Of a stretch of 64,000 nucleotides of DNA, positions 15,130-53,185 are shown in pieces (the stretch's first letter is position 1; each line of letters starts with the position of its first letter). The notes beneath the pieces are model-generated. The model ran no database searches. It worked only from the letters and a program-made list of their open reading frames with translations, and was not told the DNA's origin. A program made the translations under genes and the position numbers. Source of the stretch: Bdellovibrionota bacterium (lineage in GTDB: Bacteria > Bdellovibrionota_C > UBA2361 > OMII01); contig JBIKLA010000005.1 in the NCBI GenBank assembly GCA_044360075.1, forward strand, positions 84,095 through 148,094. Direction: 5' to 3'.

Positions 15130-15162
15130 GCAGCGCTCCAGCCGCGTCCCGTGATGCCCGGC

Positions 15163-17635
15163 TTACTTGCACACCGTTTCGGTGGTCGGCAGCTCGTTGA
15201 GGTTATCCAAGCCCTTGCGCTCTAGTTCCTTGGCTTTGCGAACGAGCGCGTCACGTCTGTTGGTCGAGCCGGTCTTGCGGAAGTACGCGCGGGCGATCGT
15301 TCGCTGCGCCTGGTTACGGGCGCTCGCAATGAGGCCCTTGAGCCGGGCGATGGTTTCTGTCCTGTCGACGGTCTCGCAATAAAGCGGCGCCTCTGGACAG
15401 TTTTTGATTACATCCGGGAATTGGATGGTTAAGCGGTTGGAGGCGGCAACAAATCCGTCCGCCTTGGCGCGTGCGCGCTGTGCGTCAGCTGCGGCACTAC
15501 CAGAGTCTTCTTCCGACGCCGCTTCAAGCACGTCTGCGGCCTCTTTTGTCAGGTTCGCAAGCTGAACCGTAATTTCGTCAAGCTCCCCTCGAGCTGCCCC
15601 GACAGCCGTATCGACACACTGGCCGTCACACACAGGAAGGCTTTCGTCCGCAACGGCTTTCCTGCCGTTGAGGTTCCAGTCTACCTGGGCTCCCGTCGAC
15701 GGAATGGTCACGTTGAAGAGGCCGGGATTGAGCCCAGAGAAGAAGACCGAGGGCTGGCCTCGGAAAGCCGGCACCGGTGCCATGAAGTTAAGGCCCCCTA
15801 CAGGGATCTCAACCGGGAACGGGTTGGGATTGCTGTATCCCGCCTTCGCCGTCAGCACTTGGTTGTTGAACCCCCGGCACGAGAACGCCGGCTCAACCAT
15901 TTGGCACTTTGGTGTTGATGCCGAGGCAGTGGCACGGGACTCAGCAGAGCGCGGGGCGCGAACGGTCCATGTGATCTCCGCCTCGCTGAACGATATCGCG
16001 ACGAGGCCCTTTTGGACCCCTGGCGCAAAAGCGGTCGGTTGCCCACGATCCTCTGCGCCGCTTGTGAAGCGATTAGTGACGACCGGCAAGCCGGACGACC
16101 CAACCGACATGAAAAACGTTTCCTGAGTCGTGTTGTTGTAGCTGAAGTAAGCCATACGGGAGCCATCGATATTATCCATGACACACTCAACCGAAAGGGA
16201 AAGCAGCGTACTATCGTCTCCCTCGTTGTTGTCTTGCGAGCTTGAGCAGCCGCCGTCAGCGAGGTCAGGCGCGCCATCAGCGTCGTTGTCGACCCCGTCC
16301 TGGCACTGGGCTTTCGGCGAGGATTCATCGCGGTCCTGCGGGCTTGAGCAGCTAAAGTCAGACGGGAAGTCAGCGGCACCATCGCCGTCGTTGTCGACCC
16401 CGTCCTGGCATTGGGAGGTGCCATCGCTCTCGTTGTCATCCTGCCTGCTTGAGCACCCCGGATCATTCAAGTCCGTCATGCCATCGTTGTCGTTGTCGAC
16501 GCCGTCTTGGCAGCTTGCCTTGGGCAGCGCCTCGTCGTTGTCCAGGGCACTTGAGCAGCTAAAGTCCGCCGGGTAGTCAGCCGCACCATCGTTGTCGTTG
16601 TCGAGGCCGTCCCGGCACTGCGGGGTGCCGTCTCCCTCGTTGTTGTCCTGGTTGCTGGAGCATCCAGGGTCATTAGAGTCGGTGACGCCGTCGTTGTCGT
16701 TGTCCACGCCATCTTGGCATTGAGACTTCGGTGAGCTCTCGTCGGTGTCCTGCGAGCTTGAGCAGCTAAAGTCCGCTGGGTAGTCAGCTGCGCCATCGTT
16801 GTCGTTATCGATGCCGTCCTGGCATTGAGACCGTGGCGAGCTCTCGTCGGGATCCTGGGGACTTGAGCAACTAGCGTCAGCCGGGAAGTCGGTTGCACCA
16901 TCGTTATCGTTGTCGATACCGTCCTGGCACTGCGACTTCGGCGAGCTCTCGTTGGTGTCCTGCGGGCTTGAGCAGCTAAAGTCAGCTGGATAGTCAGCCG
17001 CACCATCGTTATCGTTGTCGATGCCGTCCTGGCACTGCGAGGTGCCATCACCCTCGTTATTGCCTTGGTTGCTCGAGCACCCCGGATCATTGAGGTCGGT
17101 CAGGCCGTCCCCGTCGTTGTCGGCGCCGTCCTGGCACTGTGGCCGTGGATTCGCCTCGTCGTTGTCGCTTGCACTTGAGCAGCTGGTGTCCGCCGGGTAG
17201 TCGCGGGCGCCGTCGCCATCGTTGTCAATCCCATCGGCGCAAGCAGGAGTAACGCAATTGCACTGTACGTTCGTGACGTTGGCAGGATTACCAACCGCCT
17301 TCGCATTGGAGAGAACCTTTTGCTCGCCCGCCTCTCGGGCCGCAAAGTAGCAGTGAGTGTTGTTACCGGGGCTGCGGAAGGTGCCCGTGAGTACCGCCGA
17401 GTAGGTGAGAGACTCCCTGCTCGCAGCGCCGAGGGCAACCCGGCAAACCTCGCGAATCTCTTTGTCTTGGGCACTGACGCCGTCACAGCCCGCAACTCCG
17501 AAGTAGTTTTTTGCCTGGTAGTATCCGACGTATATGCTCTGGATCGCGCACTGGGCTTGGGCAATTTGCGGGATTAGTGAGCTGGACAAGACAGAAAGGA
17601 TCAGAGCCTTGAGGAGCTTAGGAGTACGCATCATG
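15163..17635 (-). CDS. secreted Ca-binding repeat protein (10 thrombospondin-type-3-like DxDxDG repeats, Cys-rich)
   Basis: Signal peptide MMRTPKLLKALILSVLSSSLIPQIAQA; alternating 34/35-aa repeats CQDG(I/V)DNDNDG...; the ATG start at 17633-17635 was chosen rather than the upstream in-frame extension. Confidence 0.7.
16200..17240. repeat. ~1-kb tandem DNA repeat (period ~105/210 bp) encoding the TSP3-like protein repeats
   Basis: The visible nucleotide periodicity matches the 34/35-aa alternating protein repeats. Confidence 0.7.
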
Positions 17636-18045
17636 GGATATCTCACGCGATAAACAACTTTGGAGCAACGATACAACAGTTGGCGGAAACCGACCGAAAC
17701 CAGGCGCAACAACCCAAAAAACCACGATTGAAATAATCCGATTGGGGCAAAAGAGCAAATCACAGGTGACTTTTGTTACCAACCAATTTTCCCTCTGTAG
17801 CCAGGCTCCACGCCCACCGAAGCCACAAGCCAGCCGTCCCCCAAACGGCCGCAAGCCGAGGAGGAGATGAGCACGAGCGGTGGACAGAAGATACACGTCC
17901 CCCTAGCGTCCCGGAGAACGCGTGAGCGGTGTGGATGGTGTGCCTACGCCCTGAAGACGTTGGCGAGCTTCGGCATAGACGGGGGGAACAGCCCGGGCGG
18001 ATCGCGCACAGAGGTGCCTCCCTGGTGCCATCTCTCTCTAGGCGA

Positions 18046-18470
18046 ACAAAGTAGCCCGGCTACAGGCGAAGAGGGGGAGGCGAGTCGTCCGGCTACATAC
18101 AGGAAAGGCGAAGGCGAAGTAGCCCGGCTACATGCAGATGCAGAGATGCAGAGTAGTAGCCCGGCTACAGGCGAGGGAGTAGCCCGGCCACATACAGGCG
18201 GACATACAGGCGCAGGCCCACCTGCAGGCGCGAGAAATATAGTTGTTTCATTAGCTTAGTCTTGCAGAGTAGTAGCCCGGCTACAGGCGAATACAGGCGA
18301 GGCGAGTAGCCCGGCTACAGGCGAAGGCGAAGGCGAAGTAGCCCGGCTACATGCAGATGCAGAGATGCAGGGTAGTAGCCCGGCTACATACAGGCGGACA
18401 TACAGGAGCAAGGAGCAGGCCCACCTGCAGGCGCGAGAAGTGTAGTTGTTTCATTAGCTTAGTCTTCTGG
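18046..18470. repeat. array of nine GTAGC-CYG-GCTAC near-palindromic 13-nt motifs at 32-37 bp spacing, including a ~212-bp tandem duplication
   Basis: The motif AGTAGCCCGGCTACA recurs at ~18050, 18085 (degenerate), 18118, 18155, 18180, 18271, 18306, 18338 and 18374. The block 18100-18262 is repeated at 18312-18470. Confidence 0.75.
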
Positions 18471-18545
18471 CGGCACGCTAAGGCCTGGAGGTTCCATATC
18501 GTTTGGGTCAGTTTCTTTTTTTCGACCCTCTGTTGAGGAAGATGT

Positions 18546-21059
18546 ATGACTCAGGACCACGACCAGCGGCCAAAAGGCGGTGCTGGGCAAGACCGGGATC
18601 GGCAGTCAGCTCGTCATGAGGCGGGAACCCCCGCCCCGTTGGACCTATCTGCGGCAACCGGCGTTGGCGAAGCGTGCACGACGGCCTCCGTACTGCGCAA
18701 GTTGCACGCCTACCTTAATGATGCCGAGAAGGGAGCAGCCTCCGTGCTTCGGGACCCGCAGGTCGGCGTTGTGCAGGATCTCCACGAGTTTTATCGCCAG
18801 GACAAGACGTGGGGATTTATCAAGCTTCCGACTGGGTCCGGCAAGACGGTCATCTTTGCTGAGATCGCTGAGGCACTTAATCTTCCGACCCTCGTCGTCG
18901 TGCCCAAGATTGGAATAGGGGACCAAACTGTTAACACCTTCCGCAAGTTCGCCCCTGACATGAAGGTCTCCCCGATTTTTGCGGGACAGCACGACGACAG
19001 TGGGCAGGTAGTTGTGACTACCTACCAGTATCTTGCGCAGGCAGCTCAGGATGGTCGGCTCGACCTCTCGCGATTTCAGTTTGTGATTCTCGACGAGGCA
19101 CATAAAAGTCTCGGCACCGAGATGCTTAAGGTCCTTGAAAGCATAGAGGACTCAACGAGAGTGCTCGGCTTCACTGCGACCGACACGTACAACGAGGAGA
19201 AGAACCTTGAGGCGCTGCTCGGTGAGTGCATATCCGACATGCCTATCTCGAGCGCCGTAAAACTGGGAATGCTGACACCGATCTCCGTCATCGTGGCGAA
19301 GACCACCATCGACGTAAGCGACGTGGAGATTAAAGCTAGTGGCGAGTACGACGAGCGCGCTCTCGAAAAGCGCATTCTGGCTGCCGGAATAAACAAGGCC
19401 TGCCTCGACACGTACAAAGCCGGCTTTGACGGCAAGAGCGCCATCGCTTTCTGCACGAGTGTTGCGCACGCCGAGGAGGCCGCAGAGATTTTCAACGAAA
19501 GCGGAGTCCCTTCTGCGGCGGTGAGCGGCTCGTTATCGCGAAAGGAGCAGGCGCGCATCCTTGAGGAGTACCGCAGCGGAAAGATAAAGGTTCTCTTTAA
19601 CGCTGACCTACTCATCGAGGGATTCGACGCGGAGATTGCCTCGGTGTGCCTCAACATGGCGCCGACCGGCTCGCTAATCGTAGCAGAGCAGAGAGCTGGC
19701 CGGGCGTTTCGCCTCAATCCGGGCGACTCGAGCAAGGTGGGATACGTCGTCGAATTCGTTTACGACGATGCGCGGCGACAGTCGCCGGTAATTCTCTACT
19801 CGGACATCATCGGCGGGACCGCCTGCCCACCGCCCGGGCAGTTGGCAAGCGCCGCAAAGGCAGAGATGGACTCAACGATTGAGAAGCTTAGCCGCTCTCA
19901 GATCGAGGGACTCACCATACACGTCGACGCAAGCTCCGTTCTTGAGATCGCAGCGAAGCTTAAACCTGCAACGTTCGTTGCATCTCCCCCGGATGGCTGG
20001 ATTTCGACGTCTGAGCTTGGGCGCTCCCTGCGCGCATCCCTCTCTACCGTCATGAAGATGATCAGCACCCTCACGCCGGAGGAGGAAAAGAGAGTGCCCC
20101 TCGACCAGCACTGCGGCCACTATCGCGCCCCGTCCACCGGACGGCTGTCGCTCCATTGCTCACCTGAATTGGCCGAACTCATTGCAGCCAAGCGCCGAGA
20201 GTTTGAGCCCCCGCAGGGATGGATGACCATAACTGCCATCGCAGAGCTCTTTTCGGTGCCTCCCAGTAAGGTTCAGCCGGTGCTTCGGGAGGTTGCAGCG
20301 GGCAGTCCCGACATGATTCGGCAGTACGCTATTCGGCGTGGCGGCCTGCGTGAGCACTACTCACCCGAGTGCATAGAAGCCGCGCGTGAGCATCTGCGGG
20401 TCAATCCAGAGAAGTTGCCGATGTTTTCTTCGGCTTCCGTTGCATCCAAGTGCAAGGTTCCTGACTTTGTGATGAGGTCATGGGTGCGCGAGCTGGTTGA
20501 AAGTGGGGAGCTGTACGAGGTTATTAAGCTCAGCAAGACCGGCAAGCCGACGTTGCGCATTACCCAGCAGCCAGGCGCTGAGAAGAAGATGCGCGATAAG
20601 GCGATCGCGTTTCATGGGCGTGACCTCGAGCAGGAGCGCTCACTGGATGAGATCGCGAAGGACATGAATGTAGGTGTCTCCAAGGTTGCCGACGCTCTTG
20701 CGCGCCGTTTTGGAAGGGCGCCGCAGCCCTCAGACACGTCAGTTCCGCTGGATCTTGAGGAGCCCCTGAAGCGCATAGTGGCGTCTGAGTCGACGGGACC
20801 ACTGCCGGAGTGGGTGATGTCAAACGACCTCGCTAGAGAGGCCCAAGACATGCTGTCGTCCTTTCCCATAGCAACCGGCATTGCTAGGAACATCATTCAA
20901 AAACGGCTGGACGCTCTCATCAGCCGCCTTCCCGAGTATCACCGACTTCCATTTCGTGATCCCGCTTCGGGAGCCACACGCGACTACTACTCGCCGCAGT
21001 TCTCCAAGCTTTTCCTGGACCCTGAGCACTGGCGTGATCTCGCCGAAGAGTATCAGTAA
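18546..21059 (+). CDS. SF2 DEAH-box helicase (Res/XPB-like core) with a ~400-aa uncharacterised C-terminal region
   Basis: Walker A LPTGSGKT, motif II ILDEAHKS, motif VI QRAGRAFR; the C-terminal half has no recognisable motifs. Confidence 0.75.
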   Translation: MTQDHDQRPKGGAGQDRDRQSARHEAGTPAPLDLSAATGVGEACTTASVLRKLHAYLNDAEKGAASVLRDPQVGVVQDLHEFYRQDKTWGFIKLPTGSGKTVIFAEIAEALNLPTLVVVPKIGIGDQTVNTFRKFAPDMKVSPIFAGQHDDSGQVVVTTYQYLAQAAQDGRLDLSRFQFVILDEAHKSLGTEMLKVLESIEDSTRVLGFTATDTYNEEKNLEALLGECISDMPISSAVKLGMLTPISVIVAKTTIDVSDVEIKASGEYDERALEKRILAAGINKACLDTYKAGFDGKSAIAFCTSVAHAEEAAEIFNESGVPSAAVSGSLSRKEQARILEEYRSGKIKVLFNADLLIEGFDAEIASVCLNMAPTGSLIVAEQRAGRAFRLNPGDSSKVGYVVEFVYDDARRQSPVILYSDIIGGTACPPPGQLASAAKAEMDSTIEKLSRSQIEGLTIHVDASSVLEIAAKLKPATFVASPPDGWISTSELGRSLRASLSTVMKMISTLTPEEEKRVPLDQHCGHYRAPSTGRLSLHCSPELAELIAAKRREFEPPQGWMTITAIAELFSVPPSKVQPVLREVAAGSPDMIRQYAIRRGGLREHYSPECIEAAREHLRVNPEKLPMFSSASVASKCKVPDFVMRSWVRELVESGELYEVIKLSKTGKPTLRITQQPGAEKKMRDKAIAFHGRDLEQERSLDEIAKDMNVGVSKVADALARRFGRAPQPSDTSVPLDLEEPLKRIVASESTGPLPEWVMSNDLAREAQDMLSSFPIATGIARNIIQKRLDALISRLPEYHRLPFRDPASGATRDYYSPQFSKLFLDPEHWRDLAEEYQ

Positions 21060-21081: not shown

Positions 21082-24000
21082 CTAAGGAGCTGGTGGCTGG
21101 ACGGCCCCTTGCGGTGGTTTCGCAGGTACGGTTGTGCCAAGAATTCGTTCAACGTGTAGCAGGTCCACGGGCTTCGTTAAGTGCTCTGAAAAGCCCGCCT
21201 CCTGTGCTCGCGCCTTGTCCTCGGCGGCACCCCAGCCGGTAAGCGCAATGAGGGTCACCTCGTCACCATGCGGGAGCTTTCGTATCGCTTTGGCCGCCTC
21301 ATAGCCCGACATTCCGGGCAGCCCGATGTCGAGAAAGATGACGCGCGGAAGCGGGGCTTTGAGGCTCTCAAGAGCCTCCTCTGCCGAGTGGGCGACGTCG
21401 ACCGTATGTCCCATCATCGACATGAAGAGCGCGAGGCTCTCAGCTCCGTCCTCGTTGTCATCGACGACGAGGACCCGCTGTGAGATAAAAGGCGCGGGCT
21501 CGGCGGGCGCTGGCGGCGCGGAAGGGATAACGACCGTCTCCGCGGCATAAACGGGGAGGTGGACGATGAAGGTGCTGCCTTTGTCCTCACCGTCGCTTGA
21601 TGCGCGAACATCGCCTCCGTGCAGCTCCGCGATCTTTCTCACAAGAGCGAGCCCGATCCCGAGGCCGCCCTGAGAGCGCTCAAGCGTCTTGTTCACTTGC
21701 CCAAACATGTTAAAGACTGACTCCAACATGTCAGGGGGTATGCCTAATCCGTTATCCTTAATCGTAATCTGGGCCGTGCCGTTTTGTCGGGACACAATGA
21801 GTGAGATGGTGCCGCCATCCGGGGTGTACTTGGCGGCGTTGCTCAGGAGGTTGGTTATCACCTGGCAGAGGCGGACGGTATCACCCCGCAGCTTGATAGG
21901 CTGCTCAGGCATATGAACATGGAGGGTGTGATTAGCTGCGTTTATGATTGGGCGTGAAGCCTCCACTGCTGACTCGACGATCTCCTGGAGAACGAGGTCG
22001 CCGTGTTTTAGCCGCAGACGCCCCTGCGTTATGCGCGCCACGTCAAAGAGGTCGTCGATGAGGCGAACCATGTGCTCAACCTGGCGCTGCATGATCTCTC
22101 GTGTCCGAGGCGCCTCGGGACCGAAGGGGTTTTTCTTGAGCAGCGACAATCCGGTGCGGATCGGGGCAAGGGGGTTCCGCAGCTCGTGGGCGAGCGTTGC
22201 AAGGAACTCATCCTTGCGCTGCGCCGCAAGGCGCAGCGTCTCCCGAGCCTCGCGCTGTTCAGAGATGTCGGTCTGGATGCCTAAAGCCCGCAGCGGCCTG
22301 CCGCTGGGGTCTCGCTCAACTACTCGGCCGCGCCCCAGGGTCCAGAGCCACGATCCGTCTTTCTTTTTAAGGCGGTACTCCGCCTCGTATGCTGGCTTCT
22401 TGCCATCCAGTTGAGCTTTAAGCTCCTTAAGGACACCGGGCATGTCATCGGGATGGACGAGCGACTCCCATGAGTGGATGGTGGGCGCAACTTCTTTGGG
22501 GTCATAGCCAAGCATGGAGAACCACAAGCCACCATATTCGACGGATTCAGTCGAGATCTTCCAGTCCCAAAAGCCAAGCTGGCCGGCCTCAAGGACGAGC
22601 TCGAGGCGGCGGCGGTCCTCCTCGACCTGCCGCAGGAGATTCAGCCTGTCGGTTGTGTCGAAAGCGGCGCCGATCAGGCGAGTTGGTGCCCCGTCCGAAT
22701 CATAGTAAATTGCGCCAGAGGATTCGATCGAGTGTACACGCTCGTCTGGAGATCGGAATCGGTACAAGCCATAGAAAGCTGGGTCATGCCTCTTAAAGCG
22801 CTCCTGGAGGTCAGCCTCAATTATCTTCACGTCCTCGGCGAAGGCAAGGGCCGCCCAATCGCTGTAAGAAAAGCCAGGCTGTCCGCTTTGCACGCTGTGA
22901 AGGGCGTACATCTGCTCGGACCAGATCAGGTTGTTGGTCTTGATGTCCCAGTCCCATAGTCCCACCTTGCCGGCCCGCTCGGCCAGCCGAATGCGGGTAG
23001 TCTCCTCCTCAAGCTTAGAGACTAAGAAGGTGCGCTCTAGCAGCATCGCTATTGAATGCAGAACCACCTCCCGCAGCTCTGCCGTACAGCTCTCATCCTC
23101 GTGCTGCTGGCAGGGATAAAAACAAACGACGAATCCCCAGCGATTGCCGGGCGATAAGCGTATCGCCCGAATGCGCGAAGCGCAGAGGCTCCGGGCGGAG
23201 CACGCGGCCGAGGTCTCCGCATCAAAGAAGGCAGCGAGATCTGAGAGCGTCACGTCATCCTTGTCAGCGCCTGCCGTGATAAGGGCGCGCCGATTGTGCT
23301 CAGATGCAAGGTGCTCGAAGAGCACCTGAGTGTCATCCGCTCCCGGTGAGGGATACTGATGCACTGTATTGCGGCGGGTGCCCTCCTCAATGATGCAGCA
23401 GATATCCCCCGGAAGGAGCTCGCGAGCCACCTCCGAGAGTGCTTGCGCGATGGTATCGACTCCGGCGCCCGCTCTGGCAAGGTCGACGATCCGTCGCTGG
23501 AAGGCGAGCTTGCTTCGCAGTTTCTGCTCGCTGTTGCGCGCCTCGGTGAGCTCACTCACGTCGCGCAACGCATACGAGAGGCGACTTGCTACAATAAGGT
23601 CGCGCTGTATCGGCACCACCTCTCCCACGAACCAGCGGCGCTGTCCCTCGTGTATTACGGAGCCCTTGAAATAAATGGGCTTGCGCTCGGCGAGGCTCTC
23701 GCGGCACCTCTCAAGCAGCAAGGCATCAAGGTTCTTGCCAACAGGAAGCTCGGAAGATCGCTTGCCGACACTCTCGCCAGGGGGGACTCCATAGAACCGG
23801 CAGGCGCTGTCGCTGTCGTAGATGTGGCGAAGCTCACCATCTTCAGGGCTCACGATACCCATAAGCATGGTTGACTGCGACATGAATGACGCGGTGAGCT
23901 GCTTGCGGGCATGCGCGGCTACAAGCGCCACGGGCAGCGGGGACCGGTGGTGCTTCCAGTTGAGCCAGACGGATCTTATGATTGCGCCAACAACAAGTAA

Positions 24001-24180
24001 TTCGACGATTCCCAGGACCGTGACCGCCTGGAGCTGCCCTTCAAAGGGCTTCTTGATTACAAACGCCAACGCTGTGCCAATCCCGGCCGCAACGACGAGT
24101 CCGAACAGGGCGCGCTGCTTATGGCTGGGGGAGCCGGGATTTCGGTAGTCTAGGTCTGAGCTTGACGGCGACCATTTCAT
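21082..24180 (-). CDS. hybrid sensor histidine kinase (2 TM, GAF/PAS x3, HisKA, HATPase, C-terminal receiver)
   Basis: H-box LATLAHELRNPLAPI; N/G boxes (NLLSNAAKYT, GGLGIGL); receiver VLVVDDNED...FLDIGLPGMSG. Confidence 0.85.
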   Translation of the reverse strand: MKWSPSSSDLDYRNPGSPSHKQRALFGLVVAAGIGTALAFVIKKPFEGQLQAVTVLGIVELLVVGAIIRSVWLNWKHHRSPLPVALVAAHARKQLTASFMSQSTMLMGIVSPEDGELRHIYDSDSACRFYGVPPGESVGKRSSELPVGKNLDALLLERCRESLAERKPIYFKGSVIHEGQRRWFVGEVVPIQRDLIVASRLSYALRDVSELTEARNSEQKLRSKLAFQRRIVDLARAGAGVDTIAQALSEVARELLPGDICCIIEEGTRRNTVHQYPSPGADDTQVLFEHLASEHNRRALITAGADKDDVTLSDLAAFFDAETSAACSARSLCASRIRAIRLSPGNRWGFVVCFYPCQQHEDESCTAELREVVLHSIAMLLERTFLVSKLEEETTRIRLAERAGKVGLWDWDIKTNNLIWSEQMYALHSVQSGQPGFSYSDWAALAFAEDVKIIEADLQERFKRHDPAFYGLYRFRSPDERVHSIESSGAIYYDSDGAPTRLIGAAFDTTDRLNLLRQVEEDRRRLELVLEAGQLGFWDWKISTESVEYGGLWFSMLGYDPKEVAPTIHSWESLVHPDDMPGVLKELKAQLDGKKPAYEAEYRLKKKDGSWLWTLGRGRVVERDPSGRPLRALGIQTDISEQREARETLRLAAQRKDEFLATLAHELRNPLAPIRTGLSLLKKNPFGPEAPRTREIMQRQVEHMVRLIDDLFDVARITQGRLRLKHGDLVLQEIVESAVEASRPIINAANHTLHVHMPEQPIKLRGDTVRLCQVITNLLSNAAKYTPDGGTISLIVSRQNGTAQITIKDNGLGIPPDMLESVFNMFGQVNKTLERSQGGLGIGLALVRKIAELHGGDVRASSDGEDKGSTFIVHLPVYAAETVVIPSAPPAPAEPAPFISQRVLVVDDNEDGAESLALFMSMMGHTVDVAHSAEEALESLKAPLPRVIFLDIGLPGMSGYEAAKAIRKLPHGDEVTLIALTGWGAAEDKARAQEAGFSEHLTKPVDLLHVERILGTTVPAKPPQGAVQPPAP

Positions 24181-24294
24181 GAGAGCGCATACCCTACCGC
24201 AAGCATAGCCGATCCGGCATGACAGTCGTCATGTCGAATCCAAAATGTGCTTGGGTATCGAGGCACTAAAAAGCCTGCGATGAGCTATGCCGAG

Positions 24295-26376
24295 CTAAAA
24301 CTGGAGTGTGCCCCGCGTAGACTCGTCGAAGTAGGCCTCAGCCTGCTTGCGGTACACGCGGGCGTATTCGCCGTTGCTTGCGAGGAGCGCCTCGTGGCTT
24401 CCGAACTCCTTGATGGTGCCGCCCCCGAGAACGATGATGAGGTCACAGTTGCGGAGCTGGTCGAGCTTGTGGGTCACCAGCGCGAAGGTCCTCTTGCCGG
24501 GGAAGTCAAAGAGAGCCTTGTTGATCTCAATCTGCATGTCGGGATCGAGCTTGGCGGTGTGCTCATCGAGGGAGCAAAACTTGGCGCCAGTTGCGATCGT
24601 GCGCGCGATGCAGATCAGCTGCTGCTGGCCGCCCGAAAAGCTTTTGCCGTGTTCAAACTGCGAGCCGTTGATAGTCTTTAGCCCAAGGGGCTTGTCGTGA
24701 AAGAGTACCTGGCGGATGCCGAGCGTGTCGACAACCTCTTCCGCAGCCATGCCGCCGACCTCGGGCCGCACGCCGAGCTCGATGATGTCCTCAACTGAGA
24801 GGCCCGGGAATGCCTCGTAGTCCTGAGTGAGGTGGGCCCCGAACACGCGGTTGTGCCGAAGGTCGTGGCAGCCGATAACCACCTTGCCAGAGGAGGGCTC
24901 AAGGCGGCCTGAGAGAAGCTTAATCAGGGTCGACTTGCCTGTGCCGTTGGGCCCGATGATGCCCACCTTGGAGCCACCAGGGATGACGATCTGTCCCGGA
25001 ATGTTGAGGGTGTCCCTCCGCGCGCCTGGGTAGCGCAGCCGAACATCCTCAAGCACGATATCGGGCGCCTGATCGAGCAGCTGAAACGTCTTGCCGTCGT
25101 TTAGCTTCTCGGACATCTCAAGAAGCTGGTAACGCAGCGAGGCGAACTCAAGCTTTGTGACCTGCCTGCTGAACAGGTCCGAGAGGGCGTTGATATCGCC
25201 CTTGACCGAGTAGAGCGAGTAGACGAGCCACAAGCAGGTTGCAGGAGAGATGTCGCCCACCATCGCACTCATGACGACCCCGGCATACGACACCGATACG
25301 AGCGCCTCACAGCCAAAGTCAGAGACGAGATCATCGGCGAGATTCTTGATGGTCGCGGCTCGCCGAATGGCGTAGCTGTTGCGGCTCCAATCCATCACCT
25401 TTTCGACCATGCGCTTTGAGGCAGCGAGGAGGCTTAGGTCGGTGAGTCCGCTGTTGTTGAGCAGCGAGGTTCTGCCGTAATTGACCCGCTGGTCGAACGC
25501 GGATGCCGAATCCTCCGCCTCAATCGAGCGCCCAGAGCACCGCACGGCGCAGCCGTAGGCGAGCCAGCCGCCAAGAAATACCGGGAGGGTCCATAGCCCG
25601 TACCCGCTTAAGATGATCGCACCGGTAGTGATGCCGAGCTCAATCATCTGCTTGCTACCAGAGAAGCTGCCCTCAACGAGCGAGCGAATCGAGTACTCGT
25701 TGCGGCGGATCTTGGTAAGGATCTTTTGCACATCCCGTCGCTCGACGACCTCGGGCGGGAGGTTTGTAGTTGCCTCGAAGATGGACTCGGAGAGATATGG
25801 CTCAATCTTCTCGGTGTGACGCTCCGAGGCGACATCCTCCTTGTACTGAAGGTACCGGTATGCCACTGCCGTAAGGATGCTCGCACCGAGCCACCAGAAG
25901 ACCCCGTTGGCTCCAGCCGGATCCGTCGCTACCTCACCGGCAAGCCCCAGCGTCTTCGAGGTGGCAAACGAGCTTGCCACGAGAGCAACGGCGCCAACGG
26001 TCGTGTAGGCGAGTCGCCTGGACCATGTGTCCTTCGTCTGGTTCCACGCCTCAGAGATGCTTCGCAGATAGTCCTTAAAGAGAGATCGCTCTCCCGTTGA
26101 CGCGATCAGCTCTGACACCGCAAGCTCGGGTCGGGTCTCGCGTGCGGGGTGCTGCTCTAGGTCATTGGCGGCAGTGAGGAGCTGCTTTGGGTGCTCAAGG
26201 TCCGCGATCGGGGCTTGGGGAGCTTGGCCTTCAGGCGAAGCAATGGGCGCGGGAACGGGCGTGTCGCCCTTTGGCTCGTTCGGTTTGTTGTCCGGCGCCT
26301 GAGAGCGCTCGATAAAGCCCATGCGAATTTCCCAACCCTGCAACAAAAAACGTTGCTGGATCGCTCGTGTTAACAC
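24295..26376 (-). CDS. ABC exporter, fused permease and ATPase
   Basis: Six-TM N-terminal domain; Walker A GPNGTGKST; signature FSGGQQQ; Walker B; the start may be the internal MGFIERS. Confidence 0.85.
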   Translation of the reverse strand: MLTRAIQQRFLLQGWEIRMGFIERSQAPDNKPNEPKGDTPVPAPIASPEGQAPQAPIADLEHPKQLLTAANDLEQHPARETRPELAVSELIASTGERSLFKDYLRSISEAWNQTKDTWSRRLAYTTVGAVALVASSFATSKTLGLAGEVATDPAGANGVFWWLGASILTAVAYRYLQYKEDVASERHTEKIEPYLSESIFEATTNLPPEVVERRDVQKILTKIRRNEYSIRSLVEGSFSGSKQMIELGITTGAIILSGYGLWTLPVFLGGWLAYGCAVRCSGRSIEAEDSASAFDQRVNYGRTSLLNNSGLTDLSLLAASKRMVEKVMDWSRNSYAIRRAATIKNLADDLVSDFGCEALVSVSYAGVVMSAMVGDISPATCLWLVYSLYSVKGDINALSDLFSRQVTKLEFASLRYQLLEMSEKLNDGKTFQLLDQAPDIVLEDVRLRYPGARRDTLNIPGQIVIPGGSKVGIIGPNGTGKSTLIKLLSGRLEPSSGKVVIGCHDLRHNRVFGAHLTQDYEAFPGLSVEDIIELGVRPEVGGMAAEEVVDTLGIRQVLFHDKPLGLKTINGSQFEHGKSFSGGQQQLICIARTIATGAKFCSLDEHTAKLDPDMQIEINKALFDFPGKRTFALVTHKLDQLRNCDLIIVLGGGTIKEFGSHEALLASNGEYARVYRKQAEAYFDESTRGTLQF

Positions 26377-26407
26377 ACGAACCCCCTAAACGCGAGGGCC
26401 GGGAGAG

Positions 26408-28090
26408 CTAGCGCTTGCGCCAGGCCCGGACGGTGGAGAAAACGTCGGGAATGATCGGCAACCACGATTGGGTTTGGGTTGGATCTGTCGGTTTTAGAAG
26501 TGGAAGCTCGATCGGATCTGCTTCTGCGGAGGCGAAGAACTCATCGCACGCCTGGCGAATGCCCGGCTCCTTGTTGCCGTGGTGAAAGAGAATGTAGTCC
26601 CGGTTCTCGCCCGTAAGAGGAGGGAGGTAATCGTGCACGATGAGGAGGCCACCTGCGGCGAGGAGCGGATAGTAGAGCTCAAGGTCGCGTTTAACTCCCT
26701 CGTACGAGTGGTCGCCGTCGATAAAAATTGCATCGGCGATGCGGCCCTCACGCCGGTACTCCTCGGCGATCAACGGAGCGGCAACATCCGAGAACATCTT
26801 GAGGTGACGCACCTCCGGTCCGAGCTCCCGCAGCACCTGATAGAACTGGGCCTGGCCAGACGGCTCGACGGCGCAGAGCCGCATCGGGAGTCCGTGGCTC
26901 TTGAGCGAGATGTAGCTTTGCAAAAGCGAGGCCCCCGCGTACGAGCCGACCTCAACAAACGAGATCTCCCGGCGCTGCTTCGATGGCGTGAGCTCGGAGG
27001 CGAGGAGCCAGTAAAGCTGGAACCTCTCATTCTCGGACATCTGGCTCTCGACGCCGAATTGGGAGATGTCACAAAGCCTAAAGCCACTGACACTCTCCGG
27101 AGGAAGATTAGGATTAAGCGGAAACTGATCTGGCTTTTCCAGCCAGACTCCCGTTTCATCAATCTGGCGCAGGACTGGGCGCACGCCTCGTACCGCAAAG
27201 AAGTCATCACATGCCTTTCGGCAGCCTGCCCAGTAGCCGTAATCGTCAACCTGTATGACTGCGCGATCAGCCAGCTGGCCATAAAGATTGTCAAGGATGC
27301 TCTTGGTTGACGAATGCCAATCAGCATCCATGTGCAGCAGCGCTATGCTTCCCACCCAATTGCGCGTGGCTGGCAGCGTTGAATCAAAAAAACCCTCGAC
27401 CGGGCGGATAAGGTCTGAGATGCCGAGCTTGCGGCTCACCTCCTCTAGGCTGCGCAGGGGTGCCGCGCACGTGCCTGTTCCCCATCCGGTATCATCGGCA
27501 GCTATTCCGTCGTGGTGATCTTCAGCACTCGGGGTAGGCATGCCACAGAATGAGTCGAAGCTCCACAGCAGCCGCGGGCTTCGGCTGTACCTGCGAATAA
27601 CGTAAGCCAACAGGGCTGAGGATCCGCCACCTGCAACCCCACATTCCACGAAGTTGCCCTGAATGTTTTCCAGGCAGAGTCGGCGGGCCTGATTAAACAG
27701 GTTGTGGAGTCGCTCGGTGCTCAGCATGGTGTAGGGCCGGATGATCTCGAGAACCTGTATGAAGTCCGGGTCGTTGATCGTGCTTGGGCGGCTGGAAGGA
27801 ATGACCTCGACCTCAAGATAGTCAAGCAGCCGTTTCGCCTCCTGGTTGTTCGGAAATAGGCACAGCTCCTCGCGCAGCGACTGGACTGCATCCTGGAAGC
27901 GGCCCATGTTCACCAGGCACGCTCCGCGGATCAGATCGAGATTGATAGTGGGGACGCGGAAGCTCTTGGCCTTCGCTGCCGCATCGAATGCCTGCTGCAC
28001 TGCGCCAGACTGCAAAAGCTTGCTGGCCTCTGCCAACAGCCCTTGAACGACCGCGGTATCGTGAGGGGGGTGAGAGGGGTGGTTGCTCAT
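26408..28090 (-). CDS. TPR protein with two fused class-I SAM methyltransferase domains (TylF/macrocin-O-MTase-like plus Methyltransf_24-like)
   Basis: N-terminal TPR; FVECGVAGGGS (TylF-like motif I); C-terminal FVEVGSYAGAS...DAIFIDGDHSYEGV...HDY (CmcI/MT24-like); the start was taken at ATG 28088-28090 (MSNHPS). Confidence 0.65.
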   Translation of the reverse strand: MSNHPSHPPHDTAVVQGLLAEASKLLQSGAVQQAFDAAAKAKSFRVPTINLDLIRGACLVNMGRFQDAVQSLREELCLFPNNQEAKRLLDYLEVEVIPSSRPSTINDPDFIQVLEIIRPYTMLSTERLHNLFNQARRLCLENIQGNFVECGVAGGGSSALLAYVIRRYSRSPRLLWSFDSFCGMPTPSAEDHHDGIAADDTGWGTGTCAAPLRSLEEVSRKLGISDLIRPVEGFFDSTLPATRNWVGSIALLHMDADWHSSTKSILDNLYGQLADRAVIQVDDYGYWAGCRKACDDFFAVRGVRPVLRQIDETGVWLEKPDQFPLNPNLPPESVSGFRLCDISQFGVESQMSENERFQLYWLLASELTPSKQRREISFVEVGSYAGASLLQSYISLKSHGLPMRLCAVEPSGQAQFYQVLRELGPEVRHLKMFSDVAAPLIAEEYRREGRIADAIFIDGDHSYEGVKRDLELYYPLLAAGGLLIVHDYLPPLTGENRDYILFHHGNKEPGIRQACDEFFASAEADPIELPLLKPTDPTQTQSWLPIIPDVFSTVRAWRKR

Positions 28091-28233
28091 GGCTGTCTTC
28101 CGTCGAGATGATTGTCCGGCACTGCTCAGGTTAAGAGTCAGCCATGCACCGCCGGGATTCCGGATTCTTCCTGCAGGAATCAGCACAAGGGGCTGATTAC
28201 GTGGCGTTTGTTAGTGCTTCAAAGGGTGAGAGC

Positions 28234-29772
28234 CTAGGCAGCGTTACCCAGTTTATCCTGGAGCTCCTTGGCCTCCCGGAATTCGGGAGCAAGAGCCCGC
28301 ACCTGTGCCAGGCTCTGTCGCGCCAGGTCGACCTGTCCCAGCCGCTGCGCGAGCACCGCGGCATACCACCAAGCCCGCCAGTGGGGGAATCTCAGCTTGA
28401 GCGCCTCGCTGAACTCTACGAGCGCGTCCACAAGCTGCCCATCCCCGAACTTTGCGAGTCCTGACCAGAAGCAAAGAAACGGATCGGATGTGTAGAAGCT
28501 TCGGTAGCTCCTGATGCCGCTGCGCTTCATGAGGGCACTGGCGTGCACTATCCGGTTGTCTGCATGAAAAAGCGCTTGGGCTCCTGAGGGCTCAAGGGTA
28601 TCGAGGAAAAGATCTCGGGAGTTTCCAAGCGAGTCGAGAAAGCGCTGCGCTCCACTTGAGATGCTTGTTGCCGGGATGGAGCCGAGCTCTGTTGGGGGTG
28701 AATGGGGGCGCTTCTCTAGGCGCATTATGCAATCAAGAACTGGATTGAGCCTGCGTGCGGCGTGCTCCGCACCGAAGATCTGGCAGGCATACACTTGCGC
28801 ATTGCGACCAATGCGCTCCCGATCTTCAGGGCTCTTGTAAAGGTGCTCAAGCGCTTGGGCGTATTCGCGCTCAGAGTGCACGACGTATCCGGTAAAGTCG
28901 TTCATGACGAGGTGCTTCACGCCGCCATACGGGAACACAACCGGCGGAATCCCACAAAACATGACCTCTTGCAAATTAAGCTCTGCAGCAGCGTAGTTGT
29001 CCTCGCACAGGGGATAGCCGTACGCATCCAGAATCGAAAGTACCGCGCCGATGTCGTGTACCATGCCGCGCACATCGAAATCACCAACGCGGCCGATCTG
29101 TGCGGCCTGAGCCTTTAAGGTGGCCTGGTCCCCTCCGGGGCCGCACACGACAAATCGGGCGTCCGGGATTCGGACTGCTGCGGACATCTGGATAAAGTTC
29201 GGGTGCATCTTTGAGAAGTCAACGGTGCCGATGTAGCCGATGTTGAACCCATCGTGGGGAACCCTTCGCACTCCCTCAAGGCGGGCGAAGTCAGTTGCGT
29301 CGTAGACCATCGCCGTTTTCGCTGCGCGAACATCTGGAGCGAGGCTTGCAAAGGCTGGGCTCTCTAAGGTGTAGGGACTGCCGGCGATAGTGAAGTCGAG
29401 CATGTGCATAAGCGTCGGCGGAACGCTTTGCGGGTCGTGATGCCCCCCCACATGAATCCATGCTGCCAGTCGGCATGGCGGAAGGGCCGTGCGGACGAAG
29501 TTGTCCATCTCAGGGCTGTTCCACCATTGGAGCAGTACGATGTCATGCTCAGCGATAAGCTTGAGGAGCGCGCTGTGGTTATCGGGATGCTCAATGATCA
29601 TGCCGGAGGCGGTAGCGAGCACGTGCGCGGCTGCATCGTCCTTGTGAGGGGCAAGCGATACGATCGAGTGCTCGAACAGGCCACCGTTCGAGGAATACTT
29701 TGCCGTGCCAAATACGGTTCGCGCAGCCCCGCCGAGGGACAAGGACTCAATAATGTTGAGGACGCGAACCAT
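28234..29772 (-). CDS. GT4 (GT-B) glycosyltransferase with a C-terminal TPR domain
   Basis: Glycos_transf_1-type C-lobe (FCGIPPVVFPYGGVKHLV...YVVHS) followed by TPR-like helices (WWYAAVLAQRLGQVDLARQ). Confidence 0.75.
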   Translation of the reverse strand: MVRVLNIIESLSLGGAARTVFGTAKYSSNGGLFEHSIVSLAPHKDDAAAHVLATASGMIIEHPDNHSALLKLIAEHDIVLLQWWNSPEMDNFVRTALPPCRLAAWIHVGGHHDPQSVPPTLMHMLDFTIAGSPYTLESPAFASLAPDVRAAKTAMVYDATDFARLEGVRRVPHDGFNIGYIGTVDFSKMHPNFIQMSAAVRIPDARFVVCGPGGDQATLKAQAAQIGRVGDFDVRGMVHDIGAVLSILDAYGYPLCEDNYAAAELNLQEVMFCGIPPVVFPYGGVKHLVMNDFTGYVVHSEREYAQALEHLYKSPEDRERIGRNAQVYACQIFGAEHAARRLNPVLDCIMRLEKRPHSPPTELGSIPATSISSGAQRFLDSLGNSRDLFLDTLEPSGAQALFHADNRIVHASALMKRSGIRSYRSFYTSDPFLCFWSGLAKFGDGQLVDALVEFSEALKLRFPHWRAWWYAAVLAQRLGQVDLARQSLAQVRALAPEFREAKELQDKLGNAA

Positions 29773-30652: not shown

Positions 30653-30841
30653 CTAGTTGAGCTCGCTGTCTGGGGGCATGTAAGGCTTGCGAGCGATCTC
30701 TTCGCTCAGCTCCTTGCAGAGGTCATCAATCATGTTGAACGCGCGCGCGAGTGAATCCACGCCGTCGCACGTAATCTCAATCATCTCGAACGCGAGCTCT
30801 TCGTCTGACAACTCGGGAAGGTCCTTGTCGAACTTGGACAT
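30653..30841 (-). CDS. small acidic hypothetical protein (62 aa)
   Basis: An ORF only; acidic, helical-looking. Confidence 0.3.
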   Translation of the reverse strand: MSKFDKDLPELSDEELAFEMIEITCDGVDSLARAFNMIDDLCKELSEEIARKPYMPPDSELN

Positions 30842-31081
30842 TGAGAGCGCCTCCTGGGCTAGTCACGGGTTTCACGACTACGGCTGAACCACAGCCAACT
30901 GTCAGCATTATTCGTTCCACCTATACAGGCGGCATTTTCGGGGAATTGCTTGAGGGCTAATCGCCCAAAAAGCGGCATTTCAGGGGGTTAAAAGCGGTAA
31001 AATGCGGGCTTCTAGGAGGAGTCTGCGACGGGTTTCTGACACCGGGGCAGAAAGACGGCAAGGGGCGCCCGCAGGCTGGAA

Positions 31082-31636
31082 CTAATTTCCGGTCTGGTCG
31101 CCGCCCGGTGTGGGGATCGGCTTGGCCTTGATAGCGAGGATCAGGCCCTTGTTTTCGGCGCAGTCCATACCAGTGACGACGGAGTCATCTGTGTCGAAGT
31201 GAACGCGGGTGTTTAGGATCTCGCTGTTGTCGGCGTCACGCCAGTTGAGCCACAGGCCGACCCGTTTTTGGTCCATGTACATCGGCCGAAACACGAGCGT
31301 CTGGCCATTGGGAAGCTTCATCATCTCGCGCTTCTTAAGGGAATGCGTCTCGCTCTTTGACGAAAGGAGTAGGAATGAGCGGAAGGGAAGCTGGGAGAGC
31401 TTTGCTTCAATATCAGAGAGGTCAGCGGGGACCTTCGGCGCTTGCGCCTCTTCGCCCTCGCGAGGCTCAGGCTCTATGGGGTCAGAAGCTTGAATGGTGC
31501 GCACAGAGACGACCACTGACCCGGGCTCTTGTTCTACATCCTCGGCAAGCGCCGGCGAGGCTACAAGCGCGAATAGGAGGGAGGGAATGAGGGCAAGGAG
31601 GCGGTTGGGTGTGCGAGGAGGCGGGACATCGATCAT
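31082..31636 (-). CDS. secreted hypothetical protein, third gene of the ECF sigma operon
   Basis: Signal peptide LLALIPSLLFALVASPALA; co-directional and tightly spaced after the anti-sigma gene. Confidence 0.5.
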   Translation of the reverse strand: MIDVPPPRTPNRLLALIPSLLFALVASPALAEDVEQEPGSVVVSVRTIQASDPIEPEPREGEEAQAPKVPADLSDIEAKLSQLPFRSFLLLSSKSETHSLKKREMMKLPNGQTLVFRPMYMDQKRVGLWLNWRDADNSEILNTRVHFDTDDSVVTGMDCAENKGLILAIKAKPIPTPGGDQTGN

Positions 31637-31642
31637 AGCGTA

Positions 31643-32347
31643 CTATTTCGACAGCTCTTTCGGTTGCCCGTCAATACCAAGATGAGGTGTCTCGATTAGC
31701 GCCGGCGTTGCCTGAGCCGCGCCGATCGCACGGGGAGCCGGCTTGAAGGCGGCTCTGCGGCGCACCCAAATGGTGGCCGACTTGCCCGATGGGTTCTGAA
31801 TAAGCTTAAGGGAGCCGTTGTTGGAGCGCATCCAGTCTACTTCCATGGTGGACTGGGATCCGTTCGTGAACGAAGCTGGACGGGCATCAAGGCCGCCCAG
31901 GGCATTCTGTCGGAATCCCGGTGTAGGCGATGCGGAAAGCGGCTGCTTGCCCGTGCTGGGCTGAGAAACAACGATGAGGACGGCGGCAGCCACGGCAGCG
32001 CCGGACAACCCACCAAAAAATGCCTGGCGCGAGCGAATGTTGGGCAAAAAGCGCGAGGCTTCCGCGCTTTCCCGACGGTCTCCAAGATAGAACGCAGCGC
32101 GCTCTTCAGCCTCGATGCGGTTTTCAATGCGCGACCACAGGTCGGCCTTAATGACGCTCGCTTCCGAGGCGGCTCGCACGTCAGTTGCGATTTCGGAGAG
32201 ATTTTCGAGAAAAGCCTTGGCGAGGGGATTGGAAGCGATAAGACGCTCGGCACGGCGGCGGGTAAAGAAGCCACTCTCGCCGTCGAAGTATTGTGAGAGG
32301 AGAATCTCTTCGTGCTCGGTAAGCATCCGCGAATCTTCGTTTACCAT
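31643..32347 (-). CDS. anti-sigma factor (RseA-like, single TM)
   Basis: N-terminal anti-sigma helix EHEEILLSQYFDGE; a central TM (GLSGAAVAAAVLIVV); it lies immediately downstream of the ECF sigma gene. Confidence 0.65.
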   Translation of the reverse strand: MVNEDSRMLTEHEEILLSQYFDGESGFFTRRRAERLIASNPLAKAFLENLSEIATDVRAASEASVIKADLWSRIENRIEAEERAAFYLGDRRESAEASRFLPNIRSRQAFFGGLSGAAVAAAVLIVVSQPSTGKQPLSASPTPGFRQNALGGLDARPASFTNGSQSTMEVDWMRSNNGSLKLIQNPSGKSATIWVRRRAAFKPAPRAIGAAQATPALIETPHLGIDGQPKELSK

Positions 32348-32356
32348 AATGCGTCC

Positions 32357-33085
32357 TCAGCGAGCCTTCACTAACTCATCAGAGGAGGATGCTTCATCAT
32401 CCTCCCTTTCTGGCTGATCTTCTTCTAAAGCACCAGGGCCCGAAGGGCTAAATTCCTTTAGAGCCTTCTGCAGAGCCTTGCGCGCGTAAAAAAGTCGGCT
32501 CATCACGGTGCCACGAGGAATGCCGATCGCGTCGGCGATCTCCTGGTAGTCCAATCCTTCTACCTCTCGTAGCGTGATGACCGCCCGATGCTCCTCTGAA
32601 AGATCGCTCAACACGGCCTGCAGCCGGCTGCCAAGCTCCTTTCGAGCAATCGCATCGTAGGGGCCCTCCACATTCTGGAGGTGCTCCAGGCTGCTGGACT
32701 TGGTGGGACCCGAACTCTCGGGACCGAATCCAGAGCCTCCAGCATTGACGCCCCAGCTCTCCTTGAATTCAACGTGACTACCCCCACGGCGGGCTCCCCG
32801 ACGCTTCGCGTCGATGGCCATGTTGAAGGTGATGCGGTAAAGCCAGGTGTAGAAGGACGAGTCTCCCTTGAATTTCTTTAGGGATAAGAAGGCCTTAACG
32901 AAGCTCTCCTGAACGACATCCTCGGCTTCCGTACGGTTTTTCAGGATGTCTGCCGCAAGGGTGAGGAGGCGACCCTGATAGCGCTCTACGAGGGTGCGGT
33001 AGGCCTCGCGGTCACCCTTCTGGGTGTGCCGAACGAGCTCCTGGTCCGAAGGACCCTGTTCACTCCGCTTTGTTTCACCGCCCAT
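32357..33085 (-). CDS. ECF (sigma-24 / RpoE-type) RNA polymerase sigma factor with an acidic C-terminal tail
   Basis: Region 2 (YRTLVERYQGRLLTLA...VQESFVKAF) and region 4 (LREVEGLDYQEIADAIGIPRGTVMSRL). Confidence 0.85.
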   Translation of the reverse strand: MGGETKRSEQGPSDQELVRHTQKGDREAYRTLVERYQGRLLTLAADILKNRTEAEDVVQESFVKAFLSLKKFKGDSSFYTWLYRITFNMAIDAKRRGARRGGSHVEFKESWGVNAGGSGFGPESSGPTKSSSLEHLQNVEGPYDAIARKELGSRLQAVLSDLSEEHRAVITLREVEGLDYQEIADAIGIPRGTVMSRLFYARKALQKALKEFSPSGPGALEEDQPEREDDEASSSDELVKAR

Positions 33086-43429: not shown

Positions 43430-43740
43430 CGCTGCTCATGCTACCCGATCTGGCTGTGCACCTATAGCCATGTGGCGGCTAAAATCTCGCCGATGCACCG
43501 GCGAGCCACAACCGTGTTTTTGGGGGAGCGTGATCAGGTTCCTTGTACGAGCGGCCGCATGCGCAACCAGAAGGTCGATAAAATCAGCGATTTCAGTTTG
43601 TTGGCGACCGAATAGCGTTGCTAGTGATAGTATTTTGGGGCGCTGGAATTGACTCTGCCGGGACGTCTGGTAAAGCAGTTTCCTAAGTGTGTGTGGAGAG
43701 GCGCTAGGCTACATTTTTTGCTCTCCATTCGTGAGTCCGC

Positions 43741-45681: not shown

Positions 45682-45688
45682 TATTTCG

Positions 45689-53172: not shown

Positions 53173-53185
53173 AGCGTGTTCTCCG

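Follow-up and report, generated by a model that had tools for sequence, protein, structure and literature searches.

A predicted glycosyltransferase and double sugar O-methyltransferase form a widespread gene pair separable from neighbouring ABC transporter and histidine kinase genes in Bdellovibrionota

Surface glycans matter in prey contact and self-recognition in predatory-type Bdellovibrionota, and O-methyl sugars are common in the surface glycans of cyanobacteria and environmental bacteria. The locus analysed here lies in a 64-kb stretch of DNA from a Bdellovibrionota bacterium (contig JBIKLA010000005.1, positions 84,095 to 148,094; hereafter, the window), and comprises four neighbouring genes for a predicted glycosyltransferase (GT), double methyltransferase (MT), ATP-binding cassette half-transporter (ABC) and hybrid histidine kinase (HK). 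Several described systems share features with it. In E. coli O9a, WbdD, and in Geobacillus, the methyl-rhamnosyltransferase WsaE, serve in the non-reducing-end methyl capping of ABC-transporter-dependent glycans; export in systems of this type is by the two-component Wzm/Wzt transporter, whose permease and ATPase are encoded separately and whose Wzt bears a carbohydrate-binding module at its C-terminus. The flagellin glycosyltransferases FlmG and GmaR, together with OGT-like GT41 enzymes, are TPR-bearing cytoplasmic protein glycosyltransferases. TylF, MycF, NovP, SpnH and CalS11 (PF05711) are single-domain methyltransferases encoded in antibiotic clusters, and MsbA and PglK are flippases for lipid A and lipid-linked oligosaccharide, respectively. 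Finally, the mycobacterial methylmannose polysaccharide (MMP) cluster brings together ManT (a GT4 enzyme), MeT1, pMeT3 and MmpH (PMC9883506).

The relevant features of the window are as follows:

28234-29772, minus strand: GT, predicted GT4-type glycosyltransferase with a C-terminal TPR-like repeat, 512 aa
26408-28090, minus strand: MT, predicted double methyltransferase (TPR-like, TylF and Methyltransf_24 parts), 560 aa counted from an ATG
24295-26322, minus strand: ABC, predicted fused half-transporter, 675 aa (the longest open reading frame reaches 26376)
21082-24180, minus strand: HK, predicted PAS-rich hybrid histidine kinase, 1032 aa
26367-26376: perfect palindrome GTGTTAACAC, candidate operator of the ABC gene
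24219-24232: palindrome ATGAC-N4-GTCAT, candidate operator of the kinase gene

The four minus-strand open reading frames (ORFs) described in the initial annotation were all present. Its domain assignments agreed with the Pfam and NCBIfam matches, except that the TPR matches fell below threshold and the ABC membrane domain had no Pfam match. The locus is probably a syntenic block inherited from the ancestor of a freshwater Bdellovibrionota clade and composed of three separable units, one of which, the GT-MT pair, would tailor glycans in the cytoplasm. The second would be a clade-restricted ABCB/MsbA-like half-transporter and the third a PAS/GAF hybrid histidine kinase, each with its own conserved upstream palindrome.

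The distribution of the pair was examined by comparing the window proteins with 80 fetched genome loci by tblastn (loci of relatives are designated by L-numbers, and the window lineage as WIN). MT had hundreds of full-length relatives with ∼45-52% identity in Cyanobacteria, Desulfobacterota, Ignavibacteria, Brocadiales, Thiotrichaceae and others; the GT family was equally widespread, its members bearing generic glycosyltransferase names only. A GT orthologue was present within 250 nt of MT, and on the same strand, in 26 of the 38 distant full-length loci. These orthologues showed 41-47% identity to the window GT over aa 1-508, a region that includes the C-terminal repeat, and the adjacent pairs came from Cyanobacteria, Ignavibacteria, Ca. 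Wunengus (Brocadiales) and Desulfobacterales. The order was MT then GT in the distant loci, where the start and stop codons of the two genes often overlapped, and GT then MT in Bdellovibrionota. Since orthologue adjacency is kept across at least four phyla, GT and MT are predicted to be functionally coupled. The existence of MT homologues of ∼900 aa raised the possibility of a GT-MT gene fusion, which was rejected when ORF tracing showed separate adjacent genes; the extra length corresponded to N-terminal TPR or PS_pyruv_trans domains.

The pair was also found on its own, in an unrelated genomic context, in L005 and L011, which are Bdellovibrionota loci. Divergent from the lone pair of L005 lies a gene (L005:6254-7990, minus strand) whose 578-aa product, a polytopic membrane protein without Pfam matches, could be a membrane glycosyltransferase or a ligase partner of GT-MT.

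GT matched Pfam Glycos_transf_1 (60.4 bits; cut-off 26.4) and Glyco_trans_1_4 (46.1 bits), and its AlphaFold2 (AF2) model (pLDDT 93.7) showed a GT-B fold with two Rossmann domains. The best Foldseek matches were BshA, HepE, MshA, PimA and PglA (E 1e-16 to 1e-12; TM-score relative to the target 0.68-0.74), along with ManT (7qsg). Within the motif region CEDNYAAAELNLQEVM, E264 was invariant and E269 nearly so among 36 homologues. Taken together, the matches and the model predict a soluble retaining-family GT4-type enzyme. In MT, TPR-like helices (aa ∼9-95) precede a TylF/MycF/NovP-type domain (∼120-350) and a Methyltransf_24/CmcI-like domain (∼375-520). The first catalytic domain matched TylF PF05711 with 135.2 bits (cut-off 23) and the second Methyltransf_24 PF13578 with 93.4 bits (cut-off 26.3), with a weak additional match to RMNT_CmcI. 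SpnH, NovP and MycF were the PDB sequence matches (phmmer, E 1e-22 to 1e-15) and also the top Foldseek matches of the AF2 model (pLDDT 90.6), followed by CalS11 and MeT1 (6g80). In an alignment of 20 homologues, ECGVAGGGS, H253, D255/D257 and D282-D283 of the TylF domain were invariant or nearly so, as were, without exception, E380, G382, S383, G386, D458, G459 and H461 of the Methyltransf_24 domain. MT is therefore likely a soluble enzyme with two different S-adenosylmethionine-dependent sugar O-methyltransferase domains, and the acidic residues kept in its TylF domain would fit metal-dependent methylation of a sugar hydroxyl. No transmembrane (TM) segment or signal peptide was predicted in GT or MT.

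The repeat regions scored below the Pfam gathering thresholds, both at the C-terminus of GT (∼aa 370-512; TPR_2 26.6 versus 27, TPR_19 23.4 versus 25) and at the N-terminus of MT (TPR_14 18.2 versus 23.5). Since paired-helix repeats are nevertheless present in the AF2 models at both places, 'TPR-like' is the safe wording. The first MT domain resembles SpnH, NovP and MycF in sequence and fold (24-30% identity). Unlike these single-domain enzymes, it is joined to TPR-like helices and to another, different methyltransferase domain, has a GT4 partner and occurs outside any natural-product context. While the GT4, TylF-type and Methyltransf_24 families are known, the combination of a fused double methyltransferase with a TPR-like GT4 would constitute a conserved cassette, one that would operate in the manner of the glycan methyl-tailoring systems already described. 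What had appeared to be a plausible four-gene 'factory' is in this way reduced to a smaller, testable unit, a GT4 plus a double sugar O-methyltransferase, with 41-52% identity across several phyla. A cassette so defined could serve as a handle on which glycans bear O-methyl sugars, and why.

Whether the ABC and HK genes belong with this pair was assessed in the sister lineages of the window. A common slot, located in the order PolA, ECF sigma, slot, RNase II and MinCDE, was compared in six lineages (where captured, the sister PolA was 78-85% identical to that of the window):

Window: GT-MT-ABC-HK, plus a lineage-specific insertion (helicase and acidic repeat protein)
L093/L094/L007: GT-MT-ABC-HK
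L003/L004: GT-MT-ABC
L100: MT-ABC
L008/L009: GT-MT-HK
L091/L092: ABC-HK, with no trace of GT or MT

The pairwise identities of RNase II, PolA and ECF sigma grouped these lineages as (WIN, L091), (L093, (L003, (L008, L009))). The identities of GT, MT and ABC followed the same grouping, which points to an ancestor with all four genes from which different units were lost independently. The ABC protein of L091/92, from which GT and MT have been lost, is intact and is the one closest to that of the window (81% identity). These comparisons show that ABC and HK are separable from GT-MT. As GT and MT are widely paired, and ABC and HK come and go independently, the arrangement is consistent with a surface-sugar tailoring pair of an ordinary kind whose neighbours are unrelated to it. 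The slot offers a natural deletion series, and illustrates that synteny within one clade is no proof of a functional module.

In L100, the position of GT, directly upstream of MT-ABC, is occupied by a gene for a 1145-aa protein with no Pfam match (L100:4083-7520). It is made up of about six tandem repeats of ∼125 aa with the consensus ...FYFDTPLPCPELI...SIRYSSEDKGFWVTFSATD...LLLEGESGKAAVVTLHEYK...

The ABC gene encodes a protein with the order membrane domain then ATPase. The ATPase domain matched ABC_tran (76.5 bits), and its motifs are intact in the translation: GPNGTGKST (Walker A), FSGGQQQ (signature), SLDEH (Walker B) and VTHK (H-loop). The PDB matches were the ATPase domains of ABCB1, ABCB10 and MsbA, with ABCB ATPase domains at E 1e-48. 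The membrane domain gave no match to the six-helix Pfam domain ABC_membrane (PF00664) even at E ≤ 1; its hydrophobic segments are weak, and the N-terminal ∼95 aa are of low complexity. Support for the type of membrane domain came solely from the alignment of aa 189-678 with NCBIfam MsbA_rel, which was below the cut-off, and alignments with the MsbA-, HlyB- and CydCD-type models of NCBIfam were all far under the family cut-offs. The protein thus appears to be an ABCB/MsbA-like half-transporter with a rare, divergent membrane domain. Like MsbA and PglK, it has the expected domain order and ATPase motifs, and its best NCBIfam alignments are of the MsbA type; it differs from them in its low scores, the rarity of its membrane domain and its low-complexity N-terminus.

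Close ABC orthologues (75-81% identity) were confined to the Bdellovibrionota clade, within which the membrane domain is conserved to that same extent, above GT or MT. In an HMMER search of 1.84 billion proteins, the membrane domain (aa 96-425, corresponding to 25048-26037) matched only 11 representative clusters. A metagenome scan for the family, keyed on the ATPase-domain motif, returned mostly generic ABC proteins, and only L099, L100 and L120 among its matches span the membrane domain. The start codon of the gene is taken as ATG 26322, as in public gene calls on identical metagenome contigs.

HK matched HisKA (61.8 bits), HATPase_c (98.4 bits) and Response_reg (69.6 bits), with two PAS_3 stretches and a weak PAS/GAF region; TM helices were predicted at aa 24-42 and 50-68, and its Pfam domain content includes no Hpt domain. 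These features identify it as a putative membrane-anchored hybrid two-component sensor kinase. Its orthologues are merely 47-51% identical where the flanking genes reach 70-85%, as would be expected of a fast-evolving unit. Near the distant MT loci, kinase matches were sporadic and weak.

The genes for ABC and HK are each preceded by a palindrome that occurs in the window in one exact copy only. GTGTTAACAC is located 45-54 nt ahead of the start codon of ABC, and was found at the same position in all the ABC-bearing lineages (L001-4, L007 and L091-94), including L091/92, in which GT and MT are missing upstream. ATGAC-N4-GTCAT lies 39-52 nt before the kinase start codon; its half-sites are kept in WIN, L093 and L091, where the upstream gene is ABC, and in L008/9, where it is MT. 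The two palindromes may therefore be regarded as gene-specific candidate operators. A different kind of repeat, the short hairpin-forming CAAGGTCTCTGAGACCTTG / CACGAGTTCTCTGAGAACTCGTG, is present in several copies in the GT-MT spacer of L093 (8081-8243) and of L008 and L009 (9728-9857), where the copies look like small extragenic palindromic repeats; the GT-MT spacer of the window has none.

The initial annotation had suggested that the four genes form a self-contained module that makes, methylates and exports a glycoconjugate or small molecule, with regulatory input of its own. In such a module, GT and MT would build a methylated glycoconjugate for an MsbA/PglK-like ABC to flip or export, and control of the system would fall to the hybrid kinase. 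Of this proposal, the link between GT and MT held up across phyla, while the dedicated exporter and the kinase of its own did not, and the reading as one module is now rather unlikely. In its favour, the genes are co-directional, with gaps of 143 nt (GT/MT), 85 nt (MT/ABC; 31 nt with the GTG start) and 114 nt (ABC/HK), and no convincing terminator separates them; the MT frame is, in addition, open upstream as far as GTG 28186. Four same-strand genes with gaps of 85-143 nt are, however, in themselves nothing beyond chance, and promoter and terminator pattern scans of the four-gene locus gave matches at chance level only. ABC does belong to an exporter type that includes flippases of lipid-linked glycans, as seen with the NCBIfam MsbA models. 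Its distant relatives gave a divided picture: L097 (37% identity) has GT8-like, GT2, acyltransferase and methyltransferase genes around it, that is, a glycan-gene context, whereas L099 has housekeeping neighbours and only an RmlC-like gene adjoining. A glycoconjugate substrate for ABC is thus a modest possibility.

What speaks against a single module is that its parts do not stay together. ABC and HK remain intact in L091/92 after the loss of GT-MT, L008/9 retain GT-MT after the loss of ABC, and HK is gone from L003/4 and L100. ABC and HK each have their own conserved upstream palindrome. Outside the clade, an ABC ATPase was found in the fetched flanks (10 kb) of only 3 of ∼75 distant MT loci (i.e. 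∼72 of the 75 GT-MT or MT loci have none nearby), and none of the fetched distant loci contained the four-gene set. The initial annotation had itself named a failure of the genes to co-occur in related genomes as grounds for refutation, and the set is intact in only two of the six lineages, each of the other four lacking a different unit. The parallel with WbdD and WsaE is also partial. The likeness lies in a cytoplasmic-face glycosyltransferase plus O-methyltransferase, helical protein-interaction modules and an adjoining ABC transporter; the window ABC, unlike Wzm/Wzt, is a fused ABCB half-transporter that is dispensable for GT-MT across lineages and near-absent from distant loci. O-antigen-type capping with a Wzm/Wzt exporter was therefore rejected: ABC is a single fused polypeptide of 675 aa that carries no additional C-terminal domain, and the distant loci lack ABC ATPases.

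Several observations weigh against treating GT-MT as a cassette independent of its neighbours, or against the function ascribed to it. The four-gene order is ancestral and is intact in two of the six lineages (WIN and L093/94), and the MT-ABC adjacency is kept in four of the six, so that ABC may have some functional tie to the cassette. Where a genome is incompletely assembled, genes absent from its slot might be located in another part of it. There is no GT within 10 kb in L100, GT and MT lie ∼40 kb apart on one contig in L010/L095, and L097 gives one ABC relative the glycan-gene surroundings mentioned above. In GT, the canonical GT4 EX7E motif has its first Glu out of register, with an Ala 8 positions before E269. 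No characterised member of the GT-MT family was found in the literature searched. Finally, genes for an acceptor, a donor pathway, GT41, pilin or flagellin are all absent from the 64-kb window, in agreement with the earlier remark that no substrate gene is evident.

With the locus read as three separable units, the pair may work as follows. On the cytoplasmic side, GT would transfer a hexose or 6-deoxyhexose from a nucleoside diphosphate-sugar onto a growing glycan, and the two MT domains would then O-methylate the added sugar, presumably at two positions. The TPR-like parts might dock GT and MT to each other or to the acceptor. Judging from the distant contexts alone, the acceptor would most likely be an O-glycan on a surface protein or, otherwise, a lipid-linked polysaccharide. 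In other phyla, TPR+GT41 (OGT-like) genes were found in 20 loci. In 10 cyanobacterial loci belonging to three orders (L015, L023, L025, L031 [14001-16980], L033, L037, L038, L042, L046 and L048), a pilin-like gene (Pilin_GH plus N_methyl) lies 90-200 nt upstream of TPR+GT41 and on the same strand, and the two run convergent to the MT>GT pair. The cyanobacterial cassette is thus tightly associated with OGT-like and pilin-like genes, a neighbourhood that suggests glycosylation of a pilin-like protein linked to GT-MT. DegT-type aminotransferase and GDP-mannose-dehydratase-like genes occurred in 10-11 loci of other phyla, and nonulosonic-acid-type genes were nearby in Geomonas (beside MT) and in L095 (beside GT).

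These contexts recall FlmG, GmaR and the GT41 enzymes, which the window GT resembles in being soluble and bearing TPR-like repeats, and the cassette has TPR+GT41, pilin-like and nonulosonic-acid genes beside it in other phyla. The window GT differs from them in being GT4-like with a short C-terminal repeat, and the 64-kb window contains no flagellin, pilin, Maf, GT41 or nonulosonic-acid gene, so that this locus does not qualify as a flagellin or pilin glycosylation island. A more specific form of the tailoring idea can be put forward tentatively, although as a whole it is unlikely: a widespread cytoplasmic system would elongate O-glycans attached to proteins and add a doubly O-methylated sugar as the cap, in filamentous and other cyanobacteria together with an OGT-like GT41 on the adjacent pilin-like protein, and in the Bdellovibrionota clade on a surface protein, with the rare ABC as an optional accessory.

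Alternatively, GT-MT might make a cytoplasmic polymethylated oligo- or polysaccharide in the manner of MMP, a GT4 alternating with O-methyltransferases without carrier lipid or export. Both proteins are soluble, the pair can stand alone (L005/L011), and, as in the known cluster of one GT4, two O-methyltransferases and a hydrolase (PMC9883506), one GT4 is associated with two sugar O-methyltransferase activities; the structural matches of GT and MT, moreover, include ManT and MeT1. Yet neither is a best match, the similarity being at the level of fold only (12-18% identity), an MmpH-like hydrolase gene is absent, and the methyltransferases are here fused, accompanied by TPR-like repeats and found in other phyla with other neighbours. 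Together with the neighbours that recur in other phyla (GT41, pilin-like and sugar-nucleotide genes), these repeats indicate surface glycoconjugates, which makes an MMP-like product very unlikely, and less likely than a surface glycan. Most improbable of all is a role for GT-MT in the tailoring of a small-molecule natural product, like that of TylF, MycF, NovP and SpnH with macrolide and aminocoumarin sugars, and for ABC as a self-resistance or export pump: the nearest solved MT relatives are indeed all natural-product sugar O-methyltransferases and an ABCB-type exporter adjoins, but polyketide synthase, non-ribosomal peptide synthetase, deoxysugar-pathway and aglycone genes are absent from the 64-kb window (as are sugar-nucleotide pathway genes) and from the flanks of the relatives, the window flanks are housekeeping, and the cassette occurs in hundreds of genomes beside TPR/GT41 and polysaccharide-type genes.

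Proteins identical to those of the window are encoded on many freshwater metagenome contigs, and the closest genomes are metagenome-assembled genomes labelled Bdellovibrionota or Bdellovibrionales. The flanks consist chiefly of housekeeping genes. At the low-coordinate side, a helicase and an acidic repeat protein are followed by RNase II, orotidine monophosphate decarboxylase, PgpA and MinCDE; the high-coordinate flank contains a divergent phosphoribosyltransferase, an acidic ORF of 62 aa, a trio encoding ECF sigma, anti-sigma and a secreted protein, and PolA. A riboswitch or other RNA leader was rejected, as Rfam gave no match across 14-34 kb (E ≤ 0.1). The stretch that separates the kinase gene from RNase II contains, in the window, a minus-strand gene for an 866-aa 'acidic double-disulfide repeat' protein with 7 repeats (15163-17763; NCBIfam NF033662), a plus-strand ORF of 130 aa (17867-18259) and a plus-strand gene for an SNF2/ResIII-type helicase (18546-21059). 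Since the genes at 15163-21059 are absent from the five sister lineages, they represent a lineage-specific insertion in WIN, and the 866-aa protein, which occurs in the window lineage only, was rejected as a substrate of GT-MT. A role in defence for the helicase, ABC or HK was likewise dismissed, PADLOC having shown merely generic helicase and ATPase similarity.

The group at 30653-33085 encodes ECF sigma, an anti-sigma factor with one TM segment, a 184-aa protein bearing a signal peptide, and the highly acidic 62-aa ORF (30653-30841, minus strand), which has no Pfam match and shows 66-84% identity among the sister lineages. This group is kept, with or without GT-MT, in L003, L008/9, L091, L093 and L100, where the upstream flank was captured. 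Because L091/92 have retained both the 62-aa ORF and the 184-aa protein in spite of lacking GT-MT, the two are independent of the pair and were discarded as candidate substrates. Farther along the window there are genes of lipid A/lipopolysaccharide and glycine-cleavage type. Envelope genes at 43649-46618 encode a polysaccharide deacetylase, another GT4 and a lipid A acyltransferase, and those at 52063-54337 a DegT-type aminotransferase beside a GFO/IDH/MocA oxidoreductase, two proteins that resemble GnnB and GnnA, which make the diamino-sugar backbone of lipid A.

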